From a virus: a stretch of DNA of 64,000 nt. Of this stretch, positions 41,063-64,000 are shown piece by piece. The stretch is from the IMG/VR virus record IMGVR_UViG_3300029305_006219. One strand, 5' to 3'. The translations under genes were made by a program, and so were the position numbers. The first letter of the stretch is position 1. Each line of letters opens with the position of its first letter. The notes under the pieces are model-generated. The model was given only the letters and a program-made list of their open reading frames with translations, made no database searches and was not told where the DNA came from.

Positions 41063-41137
41063 TGGCAGGGGAGGTAGGAATCGAACCTACGTCTGTGGTT
41101 TTAGAGACCACGGTCTTGACCTTTCGACGACTCCCCA
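41063..41137 (-). tRNA. Amber suppressor tRNA, tRNA-Gln-like, anticodon CUA (reads UAG)
   Basis: Minus-strand sequence UGGGGAGUCGUCGAAAGGUCAAGACC GUGGU CUCUAAA ACCAC AGAC GUAGGUUCGAUUCCUAC CUCCCCU G CCA. The anticodon stem is 5 bp Watson-Crick and the loop is CUCUAAA. U1.U72, G2-C71, G3-C70 and the G73 discriminator follow the bacterial tRNA-Gln pattern. It closely parallels the tRNA-Gln(UUG) at 62245-62316. Confidence 0.75.
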
Positions 41138-46143: not shown

Positions 46144-47580
46144 TTATTCTTCAGTAACCTCTTGAGCCTCTTCCATATCAGGTGCGGCGGCCTCGGCTTT
46201 GACCAGCCCTTCTAGACACTTGAAACTAAAGTTCTTGTGTTTGTATGCGGCGAACTTAGGTCTATTGATTATACGCACAACTACTCCTTCACGGACATGG
46301 GTCTTTCCAATAGGATCGGCGCCATCATAAAATTCTTCTGCAATCTTCATTACAAGGTCACCAAGAGTCATTCCCTCTTTAAGAAGATAATCGTGATCAT
46401 AGCCATCGGGTGCTACAAAATGCGCGCGATCAGCGCTTAATATAACTTTTCCAAATACAGGCACAGTCTTAACCCCCATCTGCTCGCAACGGTAACGCAT
46501 GAGGTCAGGAGTGTACTCGACTATCTCACCATCCTCGTTAGTCATTGTCATACGGTAAACATAGATGTCTGACTGAGGGATGCTATAATCTATAGTGGGC
46601 ATGACGTTAGGTTCATCATATTCAGTAACTTTAAAACCAAAAGGCTCGCATCCATAGGAGAAACGAGTAATCTCGCCATACTGCTTGATGAATTCCTTAT
46701 CATTAAGCTTCTTGTTAGAAGCATCACCCATGATAGGAGCACCATTGGTTGTGAATCCTACTACTTCATAGTAGACCGTTTCTCCTTTATTCAGCTTATC
46801 CTCGAATATTTTAGAGTGTTGTTCACGAAACTCGTTACTTCCGTAAAAACCGCCATCATAATTTTCAAGAACTACGCGGCGGGTGCCAGAAACATAACCC
46901 CAATCATAAATAGGAGTGCCTTCCTTGCGAGTAAGCTTCTTCCAAAAGCTGCGCTTATATCCTTTAAGAGTAGGTAGACATCCTGTTCTTTGACTAGTTC
47001 CATGCATCTTAAGCGTGATCTCAATTTCATCACCTACTTTAAAAGCGCCGAGATTATATGCCAACTGCTCAGTATCCGCATGCTCTTTGAAGAGAGGTGC
47101 AGTAGGAACTTTCTTTTTACGAGTTCTATTGCCTTCAGTTACAGTACCGCGGCGAATGTTGGTACGAGGTATATACTTGCAGCAGATTTCGTGTCCGTTA
47201 ACTAGACCATCAATTATATCTCCAGCTTTAAGATGAGCGGCGGCCGCCCCATCCTCAAAGCAATAGTCAAGCGCTGATAGAGGAAGGAAAAGACCGTCAC
47301 TCTTCTCACTGCGCAGACGAATTGCGGTTACATTTCTTTTATCTGGGTCCATGTATCCACCAATCTGGTTTCCTGCATCATCTTTCTTACGGAGTAGGTT
47401 ATTATGCTCAGCAAATTCTACCGATACCTGACCATCAGTGGGTAGATAAATACCCACTTGACCTTCAAAATAGCTAGTGGATACGCATACGGTATTACCA
47501 AAGCAATCTCCAAGAAGCAGTCTATCTGCATTAGGATGCTTACGCACATTTTTCAGTGTAGTTATATATGCTTTATACAT
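46144..47580 (-). CDS. ATP-dependent RNA ligase (Rnl2-like nucleotidyltransferase) with N-terminal tRNA-binding (Myf/CsaA-like OB) domain
   Basis: N-terminal KHPNADRLLLGDCFGNTVCV resembles the tRNA-binding OB-fold motif. LKMHGTSQRTG matches the KxHGT(N/S) motif I of Rnl2-type ligases. 478 aa. Confidence 0.6.
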   Translation of the reverse strand: MYKAYITTLKNVRKHPNADRLLLGDCFGNTVCVSTSYFEGQVGIYLPTDGQVSVEFAEHNNLLRKKDDAGNQIGGYMDPDKRNVTAIRLRSEKSDGLFLPLSALDYCFEDGAAAAHLKAGDIIDGLVNGHEICCKYIPRTNIRRGTVTEGNRTRKKKVPTAPLFKEHADTEQLAYNLGAFKVGDEIEITLKMHGTSQRTGCLPTLKGYKRSFWKKLTRKEGTPIYDWGYVSGTRRVVLENYDGGFYGSNEFREQHSKIFEDKLNKGETVYYEVVGFTTNGAPIMGDASNKKLNDKEFIKQYGEITRFSYGCEPFGFKVTEYDEPNVMPTIDYSIPQSDIYVYRMTMTNEDGEIVEYTPDLMRYRCEQMGVKTVPVFGKVILSADRAHFVAPDGYDHDYLLKEGMTLGDLVMKIAEEFYDGADPIGKTHVREGVVVRIINRPKFAAYKHKNFSFKCLEGLVKAEAAAPDMEEAQEVTEE

Positions 47581-54999: not shown

Positions 55000-57480
55000 T
55001 TATTCTTTTGAAGCCTCTACAATATTTTTCATTGTTTTCTCAAGGCTGGTTCCACGAAGCAGAGTGTTCCATGTCTCAGCGAGAGATTCACCCTTAGCCA
55101 TAGCGGCAGGCGCGAGGTTTTTGCCAAGTCCATTCATAATCTCTGCATTTGCCTGAGACTCAAGTGCTGCTACAAGATCAGGGCTAATTGCCGCAAATAT
55201 CTTAGCAACGTTGTCTGCATATGCCTTCTGTTTTGCTTCTTCTATTGCAGCAAGCTGCTTCTCAGTTGCGATCTTGGCATCATCTGCCGCCTTATCACGA
55301 GCAAGCTGTGCTTTCTGAATTGCATCGAAGATAGGCTGCATATCAGACTTGGCAGTAGCTTCAGCTGTTGCCTCAGCACGCTTCATAGCGGCGATCTCCG
55401 CCTGATTCTTTAGCTTTTCTTCTTCAGCCTTCTGGTTAAGCTCAAGCGCATACATCTTATTCTGGTGATTAAGTTCTGCCTCTTCACGATCGAATTTAGC
55501 AATCTGCTTAACCATTTCAGATTTACGAGTAGCATCAGAGAGTTCAAGAGTTTTCTGAATCATTTCCTTCTGGTGTGCTTCCATCATCTTAGCGACTTGC
55601 GCCTCAACCTGAACATTGAGAACTTCAACATCAGTTACAAGCATACCATTTTCTTTAAAGAGTCTTCCGTTATGAGGCGCCTGATCAGTTTCTGCTTTAG
55701 CTACATTGCCAAGCGCAGTGTTTCTGATGATGTCTGCCGCTTTTGCGTAGAACTCTTCAATATTATACTTCTTAGCTTCGCGCTTAAGGAGACTGCGCAT
55801 TCTGTCACACATATGTTTTACATAGTTATCTACAGAGAACCACTTATCCTTATATTCGGGAAGGAAGTTTACATTATAGGAGAGAAGGAACTTAACATCA
55901 ACAAAGTCCTTTGTCTGAACACTGATGATATCAGATACCTTATTATTGTCAATACGGAGATATGCAGTCTGAATCAGATTGTCTGTTGTCTTAGGCTTAC
56001 CTGTTGAAAGATTTACAATTTCAAGAGTCTCATCATACTCAAGGAGTCGAGTAGCAGGACCAATGATTGTCTCTCTCTTACCAGACTTGGATACAACATT
56101 TACTGCATAGCCAGTCCATACATTGATAGCAACAACTCCATCATACTTTGTATCAAGCACAATAGTACGAGGCTTTGTATAAGATACACCGCGCGAAATA
56201 TTAGCGGTTGCCGCAAAAATCGCAAGAGCATCATTTTGATTTGCAGTGCTATATGCATTATTAATTATGTCTGTCTTGTTAGACTTACCATTGCGCGCAT
56301 CGCGCTCAGCCTTTGCTTCAGAAAGACCGAGGTTATATTCAAGCGCCTCACGGTTGCCAGGATAGAAAGTTTCGCACTCCTTAACAGAAAGTACTCTCTT
56401 AACAACTACCTCAAAACGAGGATCAGGAAGATACATAGCGGGACCCTTGACCATCTTAACAGTTCCCTTAATTCTATCAAGGATATAGCGTCCTTCGCCC
56501 TCAGGAATTGCTATTGCATGATGCATATACTTACCGTCATACTGAATAAGTGCGTGCTCAGGGCGAGGATAGTAAATCATCTGATTATTACCTGTAATAA
56601 AGAGTTCTTCGCCAACAGGATGCTTAACTCCATTCTCTGTATATTCTGCGATAACCTTTACATAAATACCGCTAATAGGCGAAAGTTCAAGTGCGCGGAA
56701 TATTACGCCCTTCTGAGGGGTCTGTACGAAGGTCTGTGTAGGTGTAGGGAATACAACCTTGGGTCCATGAGCATAGACCTTTTCACCGTTTTCATCTTTA
56801 AGGATACAATACTCAAGGCGCTCAAGGGTGACTGCATCGCGCACATACTCAGAAGAGTTATCTTCACAAGCGAGAACTTCAATACCCGTAGGAGGAATAT
56901 AGAAAGATACTTCAGTACCCTTGATTACAAGTTGCTGACCTGTAAAGTAGGTCTCTTTCTTAACGATCTCTTTACCTTCTGCATCGAGAATAGTTGCGGA
57001 AGCAGCGTTCTTGGCGGCTGCCACTGCGTCATAAACGCGAGCAATGAGGTACTGGTTAGAACGAAGCTTATGTCCTCGAATAACTTTTGCCATCTGACCA
57101 GGGAATAGCGCAAAGGAAGCAGGTCCAGAAATATTAACCTTAATACCAATTTTCATATTATCGGGAGTAACATTCGACTTACCTGCAAGAGGGTATACAC
57201 CATCTGCCGTAGGGTTCTTGAGAATCACATACCAACCCTCGGGCGCCGATACAAATAGCTGTTTTGCTCGCTCGAAGTCTTTTACTTCATCGAATTTCTT
57301 TGTCTTATTGTTGAAAATAACACAAGTCTGCTGCTGAGAAATAGTTACCATAGCAGGTCCTGCATAGGTTCTAATCTCACCGTTAGTGCAGTCCTGAATC
57401 TGGACGTATTCATTGACTGCAAGTACAAGGTCGCGTGTGCGACCTCTATTGTCATTTGCATTGTAATTAAAATCATTCAT
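55000..57480 (-). CDS. Large flotillin/MVP-like SPFH-domain coiled-coil protein (function unknown, possibly structural)
   Basis: 826 aa. C-terminal Ala/Glu/Lys-rich coiled coil typical of the flotillin/YqiK C-terminus. No TAG. Confidence 0.35.
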   Translation of the reverse strand: MNDFNYNANDNRGRTRDLVLAVNEYVQIQDCTNGEIRTYAGPAMVTISQQQTCVIFNNKTKKFDEVKDFERAKQLFVSAPEGWYVILKNPTADGVYPLAGKSNVTPDNMKIGIKVNISGPASFALFPGQMAKVIRGHKLRSNQYLIARVYDAVAAAKNAASATILDAEGKEIVKKETYFTGQQLVIKGTEVSFYIPPTGIEVLACEDNSSEYVRDAVTLERLEYCILKDENGEKVYAHGPKVVFPTPTQTFVQTPQKGVIFRALELSPISGIYVKVIAEYTENGVKHPVGEELFITGNNQMIYYPRPEHALIQYDGKYMHHAIAIPEGEGRYILDRIKGTVKMVKGPAMYLPDPRFEVVVKRVLSVKECETFYPGNREALEYNLGLSEAKAERDARNGKSNKTDIINNAYSTANQNDALAIFAATANISRGVSYTKPRTIVLDTKYDGVVAINVWTGYAVNVVSKSGKRETIIGPATRLLEYDETLEIVNLSTGKPKTTDNLIQTAYLRIDNNKVSDIISVQTKDFVDVKFLLSYNVNFLPEYKDKWFSVDNYVKHMCDRMRSLLKREAKKYNIEEFYAKAADIIRNTALGNVAKAETDQAPHNGRLFKENGMLVTDVEVLNVQVEAQVAKMMEAHQKEMIQKTLELSDATRKSEMVKQIAKFDREEAELNHQNKMYALELNQKAEEEKLKNQAEIAAMKRAEATAEATAKSDMQPIFDAIQKAQLARDKAADDAKIATEKQLAAIEEAKQKAYADNVAKIFAAISPDLVAALESQANAEIMNGLGKNLAPAAMAKGESLAETWNTLLRGTSLEKTMKNIVEASKE

Positions 57481-58795: not shown

Positions 58796-59221
58796 TTATT
58801 CTACTTCGTGTTTATAATTAAGTGTTTTGAATTGGCGGCGATCGATGCATTTAAGCTTCTCGCTTTCATTGATATTTTCTAGCAACAACTCACAATTAGC
58901 GCCAGTTGCACTAAGATTACGTATAGACTCCATCATTTCTGATAAAGAAACACCGTATGATTTTGCTGCTGTTGCTATTTTCTGCAGAGCATTGCTCATA
59001 CTACTCTGTGCTGTTTGTAATTGTTCTTCTTTAGTACCCATTCTCACTTCTAACTCCTTCCATTGATGTACACCATCTCCTATTTTTACTGTGACGATTC
59101 CTTGATCAGAATCAATTGCGCAACCCACTTCGCCTTTCATTAATATTGGATTATTTTCATTCCAAGCCTATGGAGTATCATTTTTCATAATAAGGCGCGT
59201 ACTTAGATTATAAGTTGCCAT
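58796..59221 (-). CDS. Tail-fiber N-terminal-domain-like protein, 1 in-frame TAG
   Basis: MATYNLSTRLIMKNDTP[TAG]AWNENNPILMKGEVGCAIDSDQGIVTVKIGDGVHQWKEL continues into ORF 58796..59140. TAG at 59168-70. RBS AAAGGAG. Confidence 0.5.
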
Positions 59222-59588
59222 TTTCTATCTCCTTTGCTATCTCAATATAAGTTCCTTTTACACCTTGACTTTTGACCTGCGCAATACCAAATTTTTCCAT
59301 TTTTTGCAATAGTGAAGTCCATACAGGGCGCGAAAGGCTTGTTTTTTGAATCATCTTTACAATTGAGATATTACCAGATAAACCAATTGTTTCTCTAATT
59401 GATTGAAAAGCCAATTTTTCATTATCTGTTAATGATTTGTAAAAATCTTCTACTAAAATTAGCTGATCAGCGCCAATGACCGCTTCTAAGAAATCCATTA
59501 GGCGCCCAAGATCTCCATCAAGTCTAAATTCACGAATATCTGCTTCATATTCTTTAGCTATTGCTAATAATTTATCATAAGTAATCAT
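59208..59588 (-). CDS. Hypothetical protein
   Basis: 126-aa ORF. Confidence 0.3.
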   Translation of the reverse strand: MITYDKLLAIAKEYEADIREFRLDGDLGRLMDFLEAVIGADQLILVEDFYKSLTDNEKLAFQSIRETIGLSGNISIVKMIQKTSLSRPVWTSLLQKMEKFGIAQVKSQGVKGTYIEIAKEIENGNL

Positions 59589-59748
59589 ATTTTTATTTTC
59601 CTCTACATATTCTTTTAATAAATTATAATATAAATTTTACAGTTTTTCAACGAAAAAATCTAAAACCACTTTTAGATTCTATAAGTCGACCCTCTGCGTT
59701 CCGAACAGATATATAAAATAAAAAGCCACCTTCATAGGTGACTCTGGT

Positions 59749-59823
59749 TGGAGGCGCGCCCGCGACTCGAACGCGGAATCAAGGCTTTGCAGGCCTGCGC
59801 CTTAACCATTTGGCTAGCGCGCC
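59749..59823 (-). tRNA. tRNA-Cys (GCA)
   Basis: Cloverleaf with anticodon loop CUGCAAA, U73 discriminator, and CCA encoded. Confidence 0.8.
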
Positions 59824-59913
59824 ATTTTATCAAAGCCCCCGCGACAACGTACATCGCGGGGGTAAGCAGAAAGGAAGGGTAGAAAAATGATAGGCTGTAG
59901 GAGCCAGCCTATA

Positions 59914-59988
59914 TGGAGCAAGTACTGGGAGTTGAACCCAGATCTTCTGCTTGGAAGGCAGAAGTAATAGCCGTTATACGACACCTGC
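59914..59988 (-). tRNA. tRNA-Gly (UCC)
   Basis: Anticodon stem UCUGC/GCAGA, loop CUUCCAA, U73, CCA encoded. Confidence 0.8.
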
Positions 59989-59989
59989 A

Positions 59990-61100
59990 GAGGGCGCTTA
60001 AGATTGTCAATTGAATTTCCTGTGGAGTAGTTAATTGTATCCACACTTTTCCCAACCCTACCAAGTACTATCTCTTGCGAGACCGTGCAAACGGCTTCTT
60101 TTGACAGAGCGCTGTGTTTGGGGCAGAGGCTCTCTTAAGCATTATTATAGATTAACTTGATATTTGCGCAGTGATCACCTGATTCCTGCTCCTATTGATC
60201 TTTTCCGAAGGTGCGACCTTCGCACAGTTCTGCATATCAAGTGAAAATGGGAAGAAACGAAGACCTTTCCCGTAGTCCTCGTTTAGCGACACTAACGGAT
60301 TTCCAAGGGCGGAATGTGTCAGTTACCCGAGCTTATGACCCAGCCACAGAGGTTTGTCAGAGTATGCTCTCCGCAACACTTTTGCATCTTCAAATGTCGA
60401 CGACTTACAGGCGTGCGCCGCCTTGTCTCAGAAAGGAGGTGAGACTATAATTGAAGAAATTAGTCGCTTTTAAGGCTCACAGCGTCGCCACGAGAAGGCT
60501 TTCTTCTTGACGCCATATGGAGCACCTGATTGGATTTGGACCAATGTGGACAGAGTCTCGCGCTTACAAGGCGCGTGCAATCGACCGCTATGCGACAGGT
60601 GCATATATTAAAGAGGTGACAGCTTTAGGTCAGCCAACCGCTCATTGTTTTCTTTTGGGCGTGGTATTTGCTTACCATCCTCAATTCGAGTAAATAACCG
60701 TTTCATCTTTCAATCTACATCTGGCTTAGACATTTTTAATTGGTCTACCAGAACCTCGCCACATCCTCGGCGCCAATCGCACCCTACTTATTTCACCGTA
60801 GCTACTCTTCGGGTGGACGAAATCCACGATTTTCTCGGCATTTGATTTCAGTTTATTTTCGTGGGCGCTCTCTCAAGCCTACTCTGGATTATCCAGCAGT
60901 ATTCGCCTCAAAATACTCAATGAAATCAAGGTTATTCACTTATAGATAAACTTTTCATCAATATTAAGGATATTATAACACTGGCATTTATCAATCCCTG
61001 TTATAAAAACCCTGACACTTTTGTGCTCGTGCTGCGAGGTCAGCTCGTGGTTAGCACTCTTATAATCCTGAATGCTCCAGAAGTCATCTACATTTGCTCA
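59990..61100. ncRNA. GC-rich non-coding block between tRNAs; candidate large structured RNA (GOLLD/ROOL-like?)
   Basis: About 1.1 kb with no ORF over 80 aa in any frame even with TAG treated as sense. GC content is clearly above the flanking genes, and there are many local hairpins. No family could be assigned from sequence alone. Confidence 0.25.
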
Positions 61101-61119
61101 AGGCTTGGAAGTAGCTCCA

Positions 61120-61195
61120 TGGTACCGACTCTGGGATTCGAACCCAGAAATTTTAGTTCCTAAGACTAACGCCTATGCCATTCGGCTAAGTCGGC
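61120..61195 (-). tRNA. Class-I tRNA with anticodon UAG (would read CUA/CUN); identity undetermined
   Basis: GCCGACU UA GCCGAAUGGCAUAGGCG UUAGU CUUAGGA ACUAA AAUUU CUGGGUUCGAAUCCCAG AGUCGGU A CCA. Short variable loop, A73, G1.U72. Confidence 0.6.
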
Positions 61196-61512
61196 ATAAA
61201 GGTTGTTGATTTTGCGGTAACAACCAACCCGCTGAAGGGAGGAAAACCATGAAAAGTCTCGTACTTGGAGGGAACTGAGAATTACGATATCTCGACATCA
61301 ACCTTAACAGGGTTGCGCTCTGCCTCTGAGCTAAGCTCCCATATTGCGCCTGTGAGGTTTACTTCAGTAGCGCCAACTGAAGGTGACTTACTTCGCTTCT
61401 TTATATACCGTTTTCCGCTATTGCTCCATACCTCGTTACCATATCGCGGTGAACCGCACCTTGATCTGAGTCGGGAGTAGTTTAGTCACTAATCCGTGTT
61501 AACGGTTATATT

Positions 61513-62163
61513 TTAATCAGCCTACCATTTCCAAATGAAACCATAAGCAGATTTTCTAATTCCATTTGCACACTCTCGAATGTGCGTTGAAATACCTTTT
61601 ACTTTCACTGAAGATGTTAAATTATTATCTATTAAATACTGAGAAGCATCTGTTAAAGAAGAAAAACTTTGAATATATTCATTAGTTTTTTTATCAAACA
61701 TTTTTACAGCTTTGCTAAACAACTCTTTATTAATTGTTTGAGCAGTTTTTAATACGCCTCCTCGTTGATGAATAACAATATATACGCTATCTACTGAAAT
61801 ATTTAATTTTTTTGCCACTTCTGTTGCATTTTGCAAAACTTCATAAGTGGAATAGATTAAATCATAATCTAAATAACGTTTTCCATCTCCTCCTAAAGTA
61901 GCATTATAACCATTTTTAAATGATTGTTTTTTCTCAATCCAAAAGATTTCTCTTTCAGAAGGATTATCTGTTTCTTCAAGCAATTCTATATGAAAATGTT
62001 CAATTCCATATTTGTTTATTGCTCGATATAAAGGACGATCCTTGCATCTTTCCTTTTGATAATCACTACAATGCTCTTTCCAACGTTTTTCTATAGACTT
62101 TTCTGTTTTACCAATGTATATTTTACCATTTATATCATTGGTAATTTGATAAATGTATGCCAT
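61513..62163 (-). CDS. GIY-YIG homing endonuclease (HE6) in the tRNA cluster, 1 in-frame TAG near the C-terminus
   Basis: MAYIYQITNDINGKIYIGKT...R..H...NGYNATLGGDG...; C-terminal CANGIRKSAYGFIWKW[TAG]AI then TAA. RBS AAAGGAG. Confidence 0.75.
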
Positions 62164-62244
62164 ATTTAAATAGCTCCTTTTTATACTTATTATCAACTTT
62201 TAGCTTAACCCATCGCACACCACGTGGAGGTAGTTGATTAAGTG

Positions 62245-62316
62245 CGACCTGGGGTGGCTGGATTTGAACCAGCGGGTGTCAGAGTCAAAGTCTGATGCCT
62301 TGCCACTTGGCTACAC
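62245..62316 (-). tRNA. tRNA-Gln (UUG)
   Basis: UGGGGUG...anticodon loop CUUUGAC...GCUGGUUCAAAUCCAGC CACCCCA G. U1-A72 and G73. CCA is not encoded. Confidence 0.8.
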
Positions 62317-62561
62317 CCCAATAATATCTTAATTACATTAACTAATAGGAGTGATTTGCACTATTCCAAAGGCGATTACTCAACCTTCCTCCTTTAATCT
62401 TGTACAAGATTTGTGAACAACCTAAGTTACCGTTTCACTACGGAGTTAATGTTATTACGATTAGCGACCCCTTTCGGGCAATTTTGAATCGAGAATTTGT
62501 TGATGGAAACTCAGGTCAGGAGTTTATATTGCATCGCTTTATTTCTTACATATATATTATA

Positions 62562-63003
62562 TCATAAATTTTTTAGAAAATCAATTAATCGATAATTTTC
62601 TACCAAATTTATCCCTTTAGTTTGATTATTTTTTGGAGGATCTTGTCTAAAAGTAATTACTTTTTTAGTACCAATTTCTTCAATTGGCAGAATAAGAATT
62701 TCATTCCATTCTACGATATAAAAACAAAAATAATCTATGTCATTCTCGTAAGTGCTATAATGTTTATTGGTAGTATGGTTTGTACTGCTTGCACAAGGAC
62801 AGGCAATAGAATTATTTTCAGTAATTTGTTGATTACAATACTTTACTTGAATACGATTTAATTTTCCATTAAACTCTGCTATCAAATCATAACGAGCATT
62901 ATCTCCAAAAGGGATTGCTACCTAAATGTTATTTTTAACAAATTCAGCAAGTACAACTGCCTCACCAATATTGCCTTTATCTTTACTATTCATATTACTC
63001 CTT
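62562..63003 (-). CDS. PD-(D/E)xK (Hjc/endonuclease-like) nuclease, 1 in-frame TAG
   Basis: MNSKDKGNIGEAVVLAEFVKNNI[TAG]VAIPFGDNARYDLIAEFNGKLNRIQVKY continues into ORF 62562..62885. TAG at 62932-34. RBS AGAAGGAG. It is immediately adjacent to the interrupted tRNA-Lys. Confidence 0.45.
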
Positions 63004-63007
63004 CTTA

Positions 63008-63161
63008 TGGTGAGCCAAGCGAGATTCGAACTCGCGACCCCGTGATTAATGGTGCTTGAGGTTAGATTCGAACTAACAACCTAAAGCCGACTAAGCCCCA
63101 GACTTTACCAATTAAACATACTCAAACAAGTCACGTGCTCTTCCATCTGAGCTACTGGCTC
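63008..63161 (-). tRNA. tRNA-Lys (UUU) interrupted by a 78-nt insertion in the anticodon loop
   Basis: Exon parts GAGCCAG UA GCUC AGAUGGAA GAGC A CGUGA CUU | 78-nt insert | UUAA UCACG GGGUC GCGAGUUCGAAUCUCGC UUGGCUC A CCA. After removal of the insert the sequence closely resembles E. coli tRNA-Lys and the loop reads CUUUUAA. Confidence 0.6.
63050..63127 (-). other. tRNA-like insertion element (acceptor/T-arm minihelix with encoded CCA) inside the tRNA-Lys anticodon loop
   Basis: GUUUGAG...GUUAG UUCGAAU CUAAC CUCAAGC A CCA. The 7-bp acceptor pairing and T-arm are perfect. No canonical anticodon arm could be folded. Confidence 0.45.
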
Positions 63162-63169
63162 ATATAATT

Positions 63170-64000
63170 ATTTACTTAGTTAGCTTTTTGAATAGCTCTA
63201 TATTTTCGCTTGAGTTTATTGATTATATTTCCATTAGCGGCATCGCGCTAAAGAATACTAATACGATTAAGTATTGCAAGTTCTCTATTTATCATTTTGC
63301 TTTATTTCCTTTCTTATCTTTATTACATAAATATTATATCATATTTTTTAATAAAAATCAATGAAAACCTTTGGAGTTTGCTTTTGCCTAATGGTGGTTA
63401 GGACAAAAGCTCTCTGCAACTCATTTTTCTTTGCTACGAGTAAACACAATAGATTGATAGGTTTTTACTAAGCTACCTTCAAACTTAATGGTGGAGAATA
63501 TGAGTAACGATCTCATCTGAACTTCTGCTTGCAAAGCAGACGACCACTCCATGCAGTCCCATTCCCCATAGGAAAGAGAGGGAGAGTTTTTATATCCAAC
63601 AAGAGAATCACTCTCCAAACTCTGATGTTTTACGAGGCGCCGAGTAATGCTTGTTGGCAGCATCAAGGCGTTGATTTAAAATGGCAGAAAATGTCGGTGC
63701 TGCCCCGCTACTCCGCATCCCAAATGCGGTGTGTTACTGTTACACTACATTCTCTATATTCCAGCTTTTAGATGCGGGAAGCTGGGCCCGCGCCTTTCAT
63801 AGCCTTGTTGGATAAACCTGCGCTATTACTAAGCTATCTTTATAAATCTCGCACTTCATCTTGGAGGCGAAACTCCAGCGGATGTTTGGCCCACCGCTGC
63901 CTTTCGGATATAAGTCTCACCGAGTATAACCAGCACTGTTTATATAGCGTCTGCCGCCTCGCTCTCTACTCTCTCTGTTGATTAGGTGAGAGGAATATCC
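63170..64000. ncRNA. GC-rich non-coding block at the window end; candidate structured RNA
   Basis: No convincing ORF, high GC relative to the phage genes, and contiguous with the tRNA cluster. ORFs 63421..63666 and 63529..63981 look spurious. Confidence 0.2.

Follow-up and report, generated by a model that had tools for sequence, protein, structure and literature searches.

The window examined here, a 64,000-nt stretch of phage DNA, carries on its minus strand a tRNA-Leu(UAG) gene of type I design. With a probability that we put at roughly 85%, the gene specifies a functional leucine tRNA that would be charged by the host leucyl-tRNA synthetase (LeuRS) and would decode CUA and CUG, perhaps with CUU and CUC too, as leucine, a reading drawn from sequence comparisons. 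The design looks unusual but is functionally ordinary; it is common in large phages and entails no change of genetic code. The parts of the gene are as follows.

61120–61195, minus strand: gene for a tRNA-Leu(UAG) of type I (short variable loop), 76 nt long with the encoded CCA counted; identified by ARAGORN, the Rfam tRNA model (65.1 bits) and covariation in 43 homologues
61160–61162, minus strand: anticodon UAG, positions 34–36, within the 7-nt loop CUUAGGA with G37; read from the sequence, with the ARAGORN and Rfam alignments in agreement
61148–61152, minus strand: 5-nt variable loop AAUUU, whose final base, U48, pairs with A15; 5 nt long in 44 of 46 family members
61171–61186, minus strand: D arm GCCG-AAUGGCAU-AGGC, with a 3-bp stem plus G13·A22, A14 and A15, G18 and G19, and A20a; D loop of leucine type by edit distances and signature counts
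61120–61130, minus strand: 3' acceptor strand AGUCGGU, whose U72 pairs with G1, then A73 as discriminator with the encoded CCA; acceptor stem common to the class II orthologue at locus L173

ARAGORN calls tRNA-Leu(tag) across 61120–61195 on the minus strand, and the Rfam model RF00005 places the same interval in the tRNA family with a score of 65.1 bits (E=2.5e-12), the gathering score being 29. Read on the minus strand, the 5' half runs GCCGACU UA GCCG AAUGGCAU AGGC G UUAGU CUUAGGA ACUAA, and the 3' half continues AAUUU CUGGG UUCGAAU CCCAG AGUCGGU A CCA. The anticodon, which appears as CTA on the plus strand at 61160–61162, is one of the leucine anticodons (NAG or YAA), and the discriminator A73 lies at 61123. 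The long variable arm that is the hallmark of class II tRNAs is absent; the variable loop, at 5 nt, retains nucleotide 48, as is characteristic of type I tRNA-Leu (PMC6614811). An earlier, sequence-only reading had described a 5-bp Watson-Crick stem UUAGU/ACUAA, the loop CUUAGGA, the UAG anticodon, the AAUUU loop, A73 and G1·U72, all of which the minus-strand sequence bears out; the strand itself was absent from that account, as were two informative features, a D stem of three Watson-Crick pairs plus G13·A22 and the Levitt pair A15:U48.

The cloverleaf, which had been called clean, is backed by the Rfam score and by covariation. Across 43 distinct type I tRNA(UAG) homologues aligned over 75 columns, 98.6% of cells are paired in the class I cloverleaf, and compensatory changes occur in 18 of the 20 pairs, affecting all four helices. 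In 500 shuffles the observed values were never reached, and with the 3' partners slid out of place pairing fell to 35–46% of cells. Positions U8, A14, A15, U48, U54, C56, A58 and A73 are invariant among the 43 homologues. A refolded tRNA with another anticodon was ruled out, as ARAGORN, Rfam and covariation all give UAG. A single-sequence minimum-free-energy fold of 61120–61195 gave a structure other than the cloverleaf, as commonly happens with tRNAs.

Bacterial LeuRS reads no anticodon, and the E. coli enzyme recognizes its tRNA through A73, A15:U48, G18G19 and A20a while ignoring the long arm as well (Giegé and Eriani, 2023; PMC9976931). The tertiary core of the window tRNA comprises U8:A14, A15:U48, the run G18G19-C-A that provides A20a, and a T loop UUCGAAU with U54:A58; its D stem has 3 bp with a non-Watson-Crick 13:22 combination, G13·A22. 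The earlier suggestion that A73 is compatible with LeuRS holds up, in that A73 is found in 92 of 92 type I and 251 of 253 class II leucine tRNAs of our sample and is an identity element in E. coli (PMC9976931). When 1,218 tRNAs parsed from all fetched loci were scored for a leucine signature of four elements (A73, A14A15, U48 and a non-Watson-Crick 13:22), the window tRNA carried the full set. So did 188 of 192 bacterial class II tRNA-Leu, 57 of 61 phage class II tRNA-Leu, all 23 type I tRNA(UAG) retrieved by the anticodon arm alone, and 25 of 32 type I tRNAs with CAA, UAA or CAG anticodons, which were never selected for; among phage tRNAs of other isotypes the figure was 10 of 702.

The D loop and the use of the scaffold elsewhere point the same way. 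The window D loop, GAAUGGCAUA, is nearly identical to the bacterial leucine D loop GAAUUGGUAUA, and no more than two edits separate it from 48% of class II tRNA-Leu D loops, as against at most 2% for any other isotype. The short-armed scaffold also carries CAG, CAA and UAA anticodons, for example at loci L193 and L203, and in L193 a single genome uses it with both CUN-box (UAG/CAG) and UUR-box (CAA/UAA) anticodons; since leucine is the only property common to UAG, CAG, CAA and UAA, the shared scaffold points to leucine. Scored with a covariance model of bacterial class II tRNA-Leu (UAA/CAG/CAA), the window tRNA reaches 48.7 bits and the next-best window tRNA 33.2 bits. The same model gives 42–47 bits to some threonine and long-armed tRNAs in relatives and is therefore not a clean discriminator there, so we treat it as supportive and rely on the explicit identity-element signature.

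Short-armed leucine tRNAs of this kind form a family that extends across many viral contigs. The exact 18-nt anticodon arm of the window tRNA is present in 48 IMG/VR contigs, and the 46 viral-contig tRNAs that carry it divide into 24 of 74–77 nt and 22 of 82–92 nt; a search for the same tRNA in related phages, as the sequence-only reading had proposed, thus recovers short-armed tRNA(UAG) repeatedly. In a set of bacterial genome contigs with the same arm, mostly from Patescibacteria, 116 of 117 tRNA(UAG) among the matches listed (120 loci) are 82–85 nt long, which agrees with the earlier premise that bacterial tRNA-Leu is class II. The sole short one among these listed matches (L152) sits on a 174-kb contig of a Lachnospiraceae metagenome-assembled genome, where it adjoins a baseplate-wedge gene and hence has a phage-like context. 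A second scan, with the window's D-arm motif, added 35 viral contigs of the same design, and two cultured Streptomyces phages, Sycamore (MT701593.1) and Riptide (PV654398.1), have 75–76-nt genes with G1·U72 that are annotated tRNA-Leu or tRNA-Leu(tag). These samples were gathered by sequence patterns and are not a census; because many family members were retrieved in this way, counts within the set found by the D-arm pattern are partly true by construction.

In the phage loci sampled, loss of the arm is essentially confined to leucine. Among leucine tRNAs with unselected anticodons, 32 of 65 are short-armed, compared with 0 of 57 serine and 2 of 25 tyrosine tRNAs from the same phage loci, and type I forms make up about half of the leucine tRNAs in the large phages sampled. 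Bacterial TyrRS depends on the long arm. A leucine-specific loss is what would be expected if LeuRS, unlike SerRS and bacterial TyrRS, needs no arm. The change is also accompanied by a substitution elsewhere in the core, with G9 replaced by A9 in 43 of the 46 family members.

The window belongs to a large phage with a genome of roughly 135 kb, 64 kb of which was examined. It has a GC content of about 36%, bears all its genes on the minus strand, and encodes DNA polymerase III alpha, GyrA/GyrB, NAD-ligase, DnaB, RecJ and a protein with a major-vault-protein (MVP) shoulder domain. A BLAST search of window positions 59000–64000 against 50,697 GenBank phage records found no close relative and returned tRNA-sized matches only; metagenomes, by comparison, hold a large clade of related contigs of roughly 105–143 kb. 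Loci reached through the 18-mer anticodon arm are only distant relatives of the window phage, and closer relatives were reached through homologues of the MVP-like protein, which served as the marker of the clade. This 826-aa protein (55000–57480, minus strand; Pfam PF11978, 91 bits) has thousands of metagenomic counterparts. All eight tRNA genes that ARAGORN finds in the window lie on the minus strand, and the immediate surroundings of the leucine gene are these.

61196–61265, minus strand: 5' leader, 70 nt, between tRNA-Asn and tRNA-Leu; 65 of 67 aligned bases identical to L173, conserved in L173, L175 and L178
61060–61119, minus strand: 3' trailer, beginning UGGAGCUACUUCCAAGC; conserved in relatives, with 49 of 52 aligned bases identical to L173
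61266–61340, minus strand: upstream neighbour tRNA-Asn(GUU), in the conserved order Gln-Asn-Leu(UAG)-Thr-Gly; from ARAGORN and the relatives' loci
60518–60602, minus strand: downstream neighbour tRNA-Thr(UGU), 85 nt with a 13-nt variable region; from ARAGORN and Rfam

The order Gln-Asn-Leu(UAG)-Thr-Gly is conserved among relatives of the window phage, which allows the leucine gene to be compared at one and the same locus. The closest relative, L215 (86% protein identity), has a type I tRNA almost identical to that of the window, and type I tRNAs belonging to two further subtypes occur in L216, L177, L178, L175, L176 and L217. At L173 and L174, which share one sequence, an 86-nt class II tRNA-Leu(UAG) occupies the same position; altogether, the type I form is found in eight of the ten related loci that carry a tRNA(UAG) there. 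The class II acceptor, GCCGAUU/AAUCGGU with G1·U72, A73 and CCA, closely resembles the GCCGACU/AGUCGGU of the window, and the flanks of the window and L173 are 94–97% identical (leader 65/67, trailer 49/52), as against 29 of 42 identical positions plus an arm indel in the tRNA core (positions 8–50). These alignments indicate that the tRNA body has switched between class I and class II while the locus around it stayed nearly identical, which is strong evidence that both forms do the same job. L175 and L176 contain class I and class II leucine tRNAs together, so that, unless the phage supplies a synthetase, the host LeuRS would have to charge both.

The view that the window gene is a structurally atypical leucine isoacceptor, one of two options offered by the sequence-only reading, is thus supported by its identity elements, by the other leucine anticodons on the same scaffold and by the class II form at a relative's locus, and the codon alignments described below lend it further support. 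The remaining oddity of the gene, its G1·U72 pair, had been described as unusual. That is correct for bacteria, where 2 of 126 sampled tRNA-Leu have it, and does not hold for phages: across loci L001–L218 the pair occurs in 52% of phage tRNA-Leu with UAG, 38% with UAA and 33% with CAA, as well as in 62% of phage tRNA-Glu and 27% of tRNA-Arg, and is rare or absent in other phage isotypes. A G1-U72 pair is also mentioned for the E. coli tRNA-Leu(UAA) crystallized with LeuRS (Fan et al., 2019; PMC6614811).

One alternative accepts that the gene is a leucine tRNA and proposes that its type I shape, and perhaps G1·U72, evades host defences or toxins, making the design an anti-defence adaptation rather than a neutral variant. 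We regard this as possible but unlikely. It would fit the enrichment of the same-arm short form in viral contigs (24/46, against 1/117 in bacterial contigs among the matches listed), the baseplate gene beside the lone short bacterial-contig tRNA, the excess of G1·U72 in phage tRNA-Leu(UAG) (52%, against 2/126 in bacterial tRNA-Leu), and the interchange of class I and class II bodies between flanks that barely differ, a pattern suggestive of recurrent turnover. Published work reports that phage tRNAs evolve to avoid host tRNA nucleases, that the toxin MenT3 has a marked preference for serine tRNAs and that the toxin FaRel2 inspects the acceptor stem. The enrichment counts, however, come from samples ascertained by pattern, L175 and L176 carry class I and class II leucine tRNAs side by side, and the retention of arms by tyrosine and serine tRNAs is explained by synthetase constraints alone. 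No defence system known to act on class II tRNA-Leu was identified here. A broader version, in which type I tRNA-Leu is a widespread, phage-favoured design, often with G1·U72, that swaps with class II and is kept to escape host factors recognizing the long arm, is similarly doubtful; if it were true, the LeuRS enzymes of many gut bacteria would have to accept type I tRNA-Leu.

The other option raised by the sequence-only reading was that the tRNA inserts a different amino acid at CUA/CUG codons, that is, a non-leucine body with a UAG anticodon acting as a recoding tRNA. Yeast mitochondrial tRNA-Thr(UAG) provides the model for such a molecule: it is class I, reassigns CUN to threonine, has an enlarged anticodon loop and is served by its own threonyl-tRNA synthetase. 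The window tRNA shares with it the UAG anticodon and the class I shape, which is atypical for bacterial leucine tRNAs, and the same phage manipulates decoding in another way, having a suppressor tRNA(CUA) at 41063–41137. The codons of the phage speak against recoding. Minus-strand ORFs of the window contain 125 CTA codons among about 15,500, CTT being the commonest leucine codon, and CUN makes up 718 of about 1200 leucine codons. Comparison of CUA positions with homologs, which had been suggested as a check, shows window CTA codons aligned to leucine in 73% of 112 codon pairs from five related phages, in line with the other five leucine codons (62–80%), and the replacements of window CTA in these relatives are mainly TTA, CTT, CTG and CTC. 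The CTA codons of GyrA and of the MVP-like protein, three in each, also agree with leucine; the three of GyrA are too few, and the comparison was therefore extended to the relatives' DNA and to NAD-ligase. Among 150 cluster representatives of NAD-ligase (34–53% identity), leucine is the majority residue at seven of eight CTA columns, with a pooled frequency of 69%. As judged from these alignments, CUA stands for leucine in the phage's proteins, and there is no sign of reassignment; the comparison reveals the meaning of CUA in proteins, not which tRNA delivers the leucine.

The molecule itself also argues against recoding. Its anticodon loop has the normal 7 nt, unlike that of the yeast tRNA, and it carries the full LeuRS identity set, has no G3·U70 (the alanine determinant) and has no long arm for SerRS. 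Apart from LeuRS, SerRS and AlaRS, the synthetases recognize bases of the anticodon, and UAG lacks those that they require. The ten largest ORFs of the 64-kb window contain no synthetase domain. With leucine-like relatives that tolerate the short arm and a codon comparison that gives leucine, insertion of another amino acid can be set aside as very improbable. That the gene is decaying or non-functional, its arm lost by deletion as a comparison with the L173 class II orthologue might imply, is less credible still, given that all helices are intact, CCA is encoded, the positions invariant in tRNAs are preserved, covariation is seen at 18 of 20 pairs across 43 distinct homologues, type I is the majority state of the clade (8 of 10 loci with tRNA(UAG)) and arm loss is accompanied by G9 to A9 in 43 of 46 members.

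The amber-suppressor tRNA(CUA) lies on the minus strand at 41063–41137 and is syntenic in the clade (L173 22080–22154, L175 21163–21238, L218 20717–20792). Treating TAG as a sense codon extends window ORFs by no more than does the same treatment of TGA, and TAG closes 9 of the 62 ORFs, so that TAG recoding is not evident in the 64-kb window.

On the favoured reading of a functional leucine tRNA, the gene would be transcribed on the minus strand within the tRNA array, with CCA already encoded. The host LeuRS would then charge it with leucine, probably by recognizing A73 and the D/T-loop core (U8:A14, A15:U48, G18G19 and A20a), all of which are retained. A TrmD-type G36G37 context suggests that m1G37 would be formed, and U34 together with G37 would allow CUA and CUG to be decoded as leucine; CUU and CUC may be decoded too, depending on modification of U34. 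The tRNA would in this way supplement the supply for the phage's CUN codons. Precedent for charging comes from Streptomyces coelicolor, where a naturally occurring type I tRNA-Leu(CAA), its variable loop 5 nt long, is a substrate of the organism's own LeuRS (Fan et al., 2019, NAR 47:6369; PMC6614811). The LeuRS enzymes of E. coli and S. purpurogeneiscleroticus do not charge the Streptomyces tRNA, and the leucine-specific domain of LeuRS decides the matter (PMC6614811); acceptance is thus enzyme-dependent, and would here turn on the LeuRS of whichever bacterium hosts the window phage. The A. aeolicus and M. tuberculosis enzymes are reported to use variable-arm orientation or contacts.

The surrounding tRNA region has several further peculiarities. 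Arms have been gained in the same clade, the opposite of what is seen for leucine: the 85-nt tRNA-Thr(UGU) at 60518–60602 (minus strand) has a 13-nt variable region, and tRNA-Lys(UUU) genes of relatives measure 86–87 nt with an extra arm (L175 5171–5257, L178 2722–2807, L217 284–370), so that isotypes that are normally short-armed have acquired arms in the clade of the window phage. At 63011–63161 (minus strand), an insert of 77–78 nt interrupts a tRNA-Lys(UUU)-like gene between U34 and U35. The D arm and anticodon stem of the split gene are those of the uninterrupted tRNA-Lys(UUU) in L215, and the insert, at 63053–63127, resembles a tRNA too and has CCA at its end (31.4 bits with the Rfam tRNA model, against 50.1 bits for the outer gene); one tRNA here lies nested within the anticodon loop of a second. 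A weaker tRNA-like match at 63686–63754 (minus strand, 35.7 bits) has acceptor, D and anticodon arms, with 17 nt in place of the normal variable-loop and T-arm region.

Candidate HDV-like (theta-type) ribozymes lie directly 3' of two tRNAs on the minus strand, one behind tRNA-Gln at 62181–62248 (RF02682, 37 bits where the gathering score is 44) and one behind tRNA-Thr at 60452–60526 (CPEB3 model, 20 bits), positions that match the reported association of theta ribozymes with the 3' trailers of phage tRNAs (PMC10879173). Neither the leader nor the trailer of tRNA-Leu(UAG) gave an Rfam match when a theta/HDV-like ribozyme was sought, and neither has a significant fold (z = -0.7 and -0.8). Opposite the leader, on the plus strand at 61235–61262, a GGAGG is followed after 7 nt by the ATG of a 9-codon ORF (MKSLVLGGN); the motif, conserved in relatives, is probably incidental to the minus-strand spacer. 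Between tRNA-Asn and tRNA-Gln is a GIY-YIG homing-endonuclease-like ORF (61522–62196, minus strand; motif YIYQITNDINGKIYIGKT), and GIY-YIG, HNH and PD-(D/E)XK endonuclease genes are scattered throughout the tRNA arrays of relatives. Clade relatives also have RNA ligase and kinase/phosphoesterase genes near the tRNA region, and the window ORF at 46144–47580 has a weak, sub-threshold match to the Pfam RNA_ligase model (22 bits, cut-off 27).

Among described systems, the Streptomyces type I tRNA-Leu(CAA) comes nearest, with the tRNA-Leu of animal mitochondria next. The S. coelicolor tRNA resembles ours in its 5-nt variable loop and in being a tRNA-Leu of the bacterial world that is leucylated by a bacterial LeuRS, five nucleotides being the reported minimum loop length for good charging in that system (PMC6614811). 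Judged by its published description, it differs in being chromosomal with a CAA anticodon and C48, whereas the window tRNA is phage-borne with UAG and U48; A73, moreover, is not an identity element in S. coelicolor (PMC6614811). Animal mitochondrial tRNA-Leu likewise has no long arm and has A73 and A14 as identity elements (PMC9976931), but in mitochondria the D/T loops of tRNAs are degenerate and charging falls to a dedicated LeuRS, whereas the window tRNA has a fully canonical elbow (the T loop UUCGAAU together with G18G19). Canonical bacterial class II tRNA-Leu(UAG) shares with the window tRNA the anticodon stem-loop 18-mer GTTAGTCTTAGGAACTAA, identical in many bacterial genes, along with A73, U8:A14, A15:U48, the G18G19/A20a D loop, the 3-bp D stem with a 13:22 mismatch, and G37; the differences lie in the variable region (5 nt in the window, 13–17 nt in class II), in A9 versus G9 and in G1·U72 versus G1-C72. 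Most alike in setting are the genes of Sycamore and Riptide, which are phage-encoded, short-armed and annotated tRNA-Leu, with UAG, G1·U72 and A73; they belong to other phage lineages and hosts, show only 79–80% identity where they align and differ in D-arm subtype.

Type I tRNA-Leu was thus already known from animal mitochondria and S. coelicolor, and short tRNA-Leu(tag) genes stand in GenBank records of Streptomyces phages. A recent review describes tRNA-Leu as long-armed everywhere except in animal mitochondria (PMC9976931), and our search of the literature found no description of the short-armed phage tRNA-Leu family as such. What is added here, of modest interest, is the breadth of the phage family, the leucine-specific loss of the arm and the in-place swap of class I and class II bodies. 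The scaffold is a compact natural one for leucine, which may be of use in synthetic biology, where phage tRNA-Leu has already served for swapped codes. In annotation, such tRNAs should be called leucine despite their class I shape. The phage does not reassign CUA/CUG, and its genes can therefore be translated with leucine at those codons. For the family as a whole, short-armed leucine tRNAs extend well beyond the textbook exceptions, animal mitochondria and the one described Streptomyces case.
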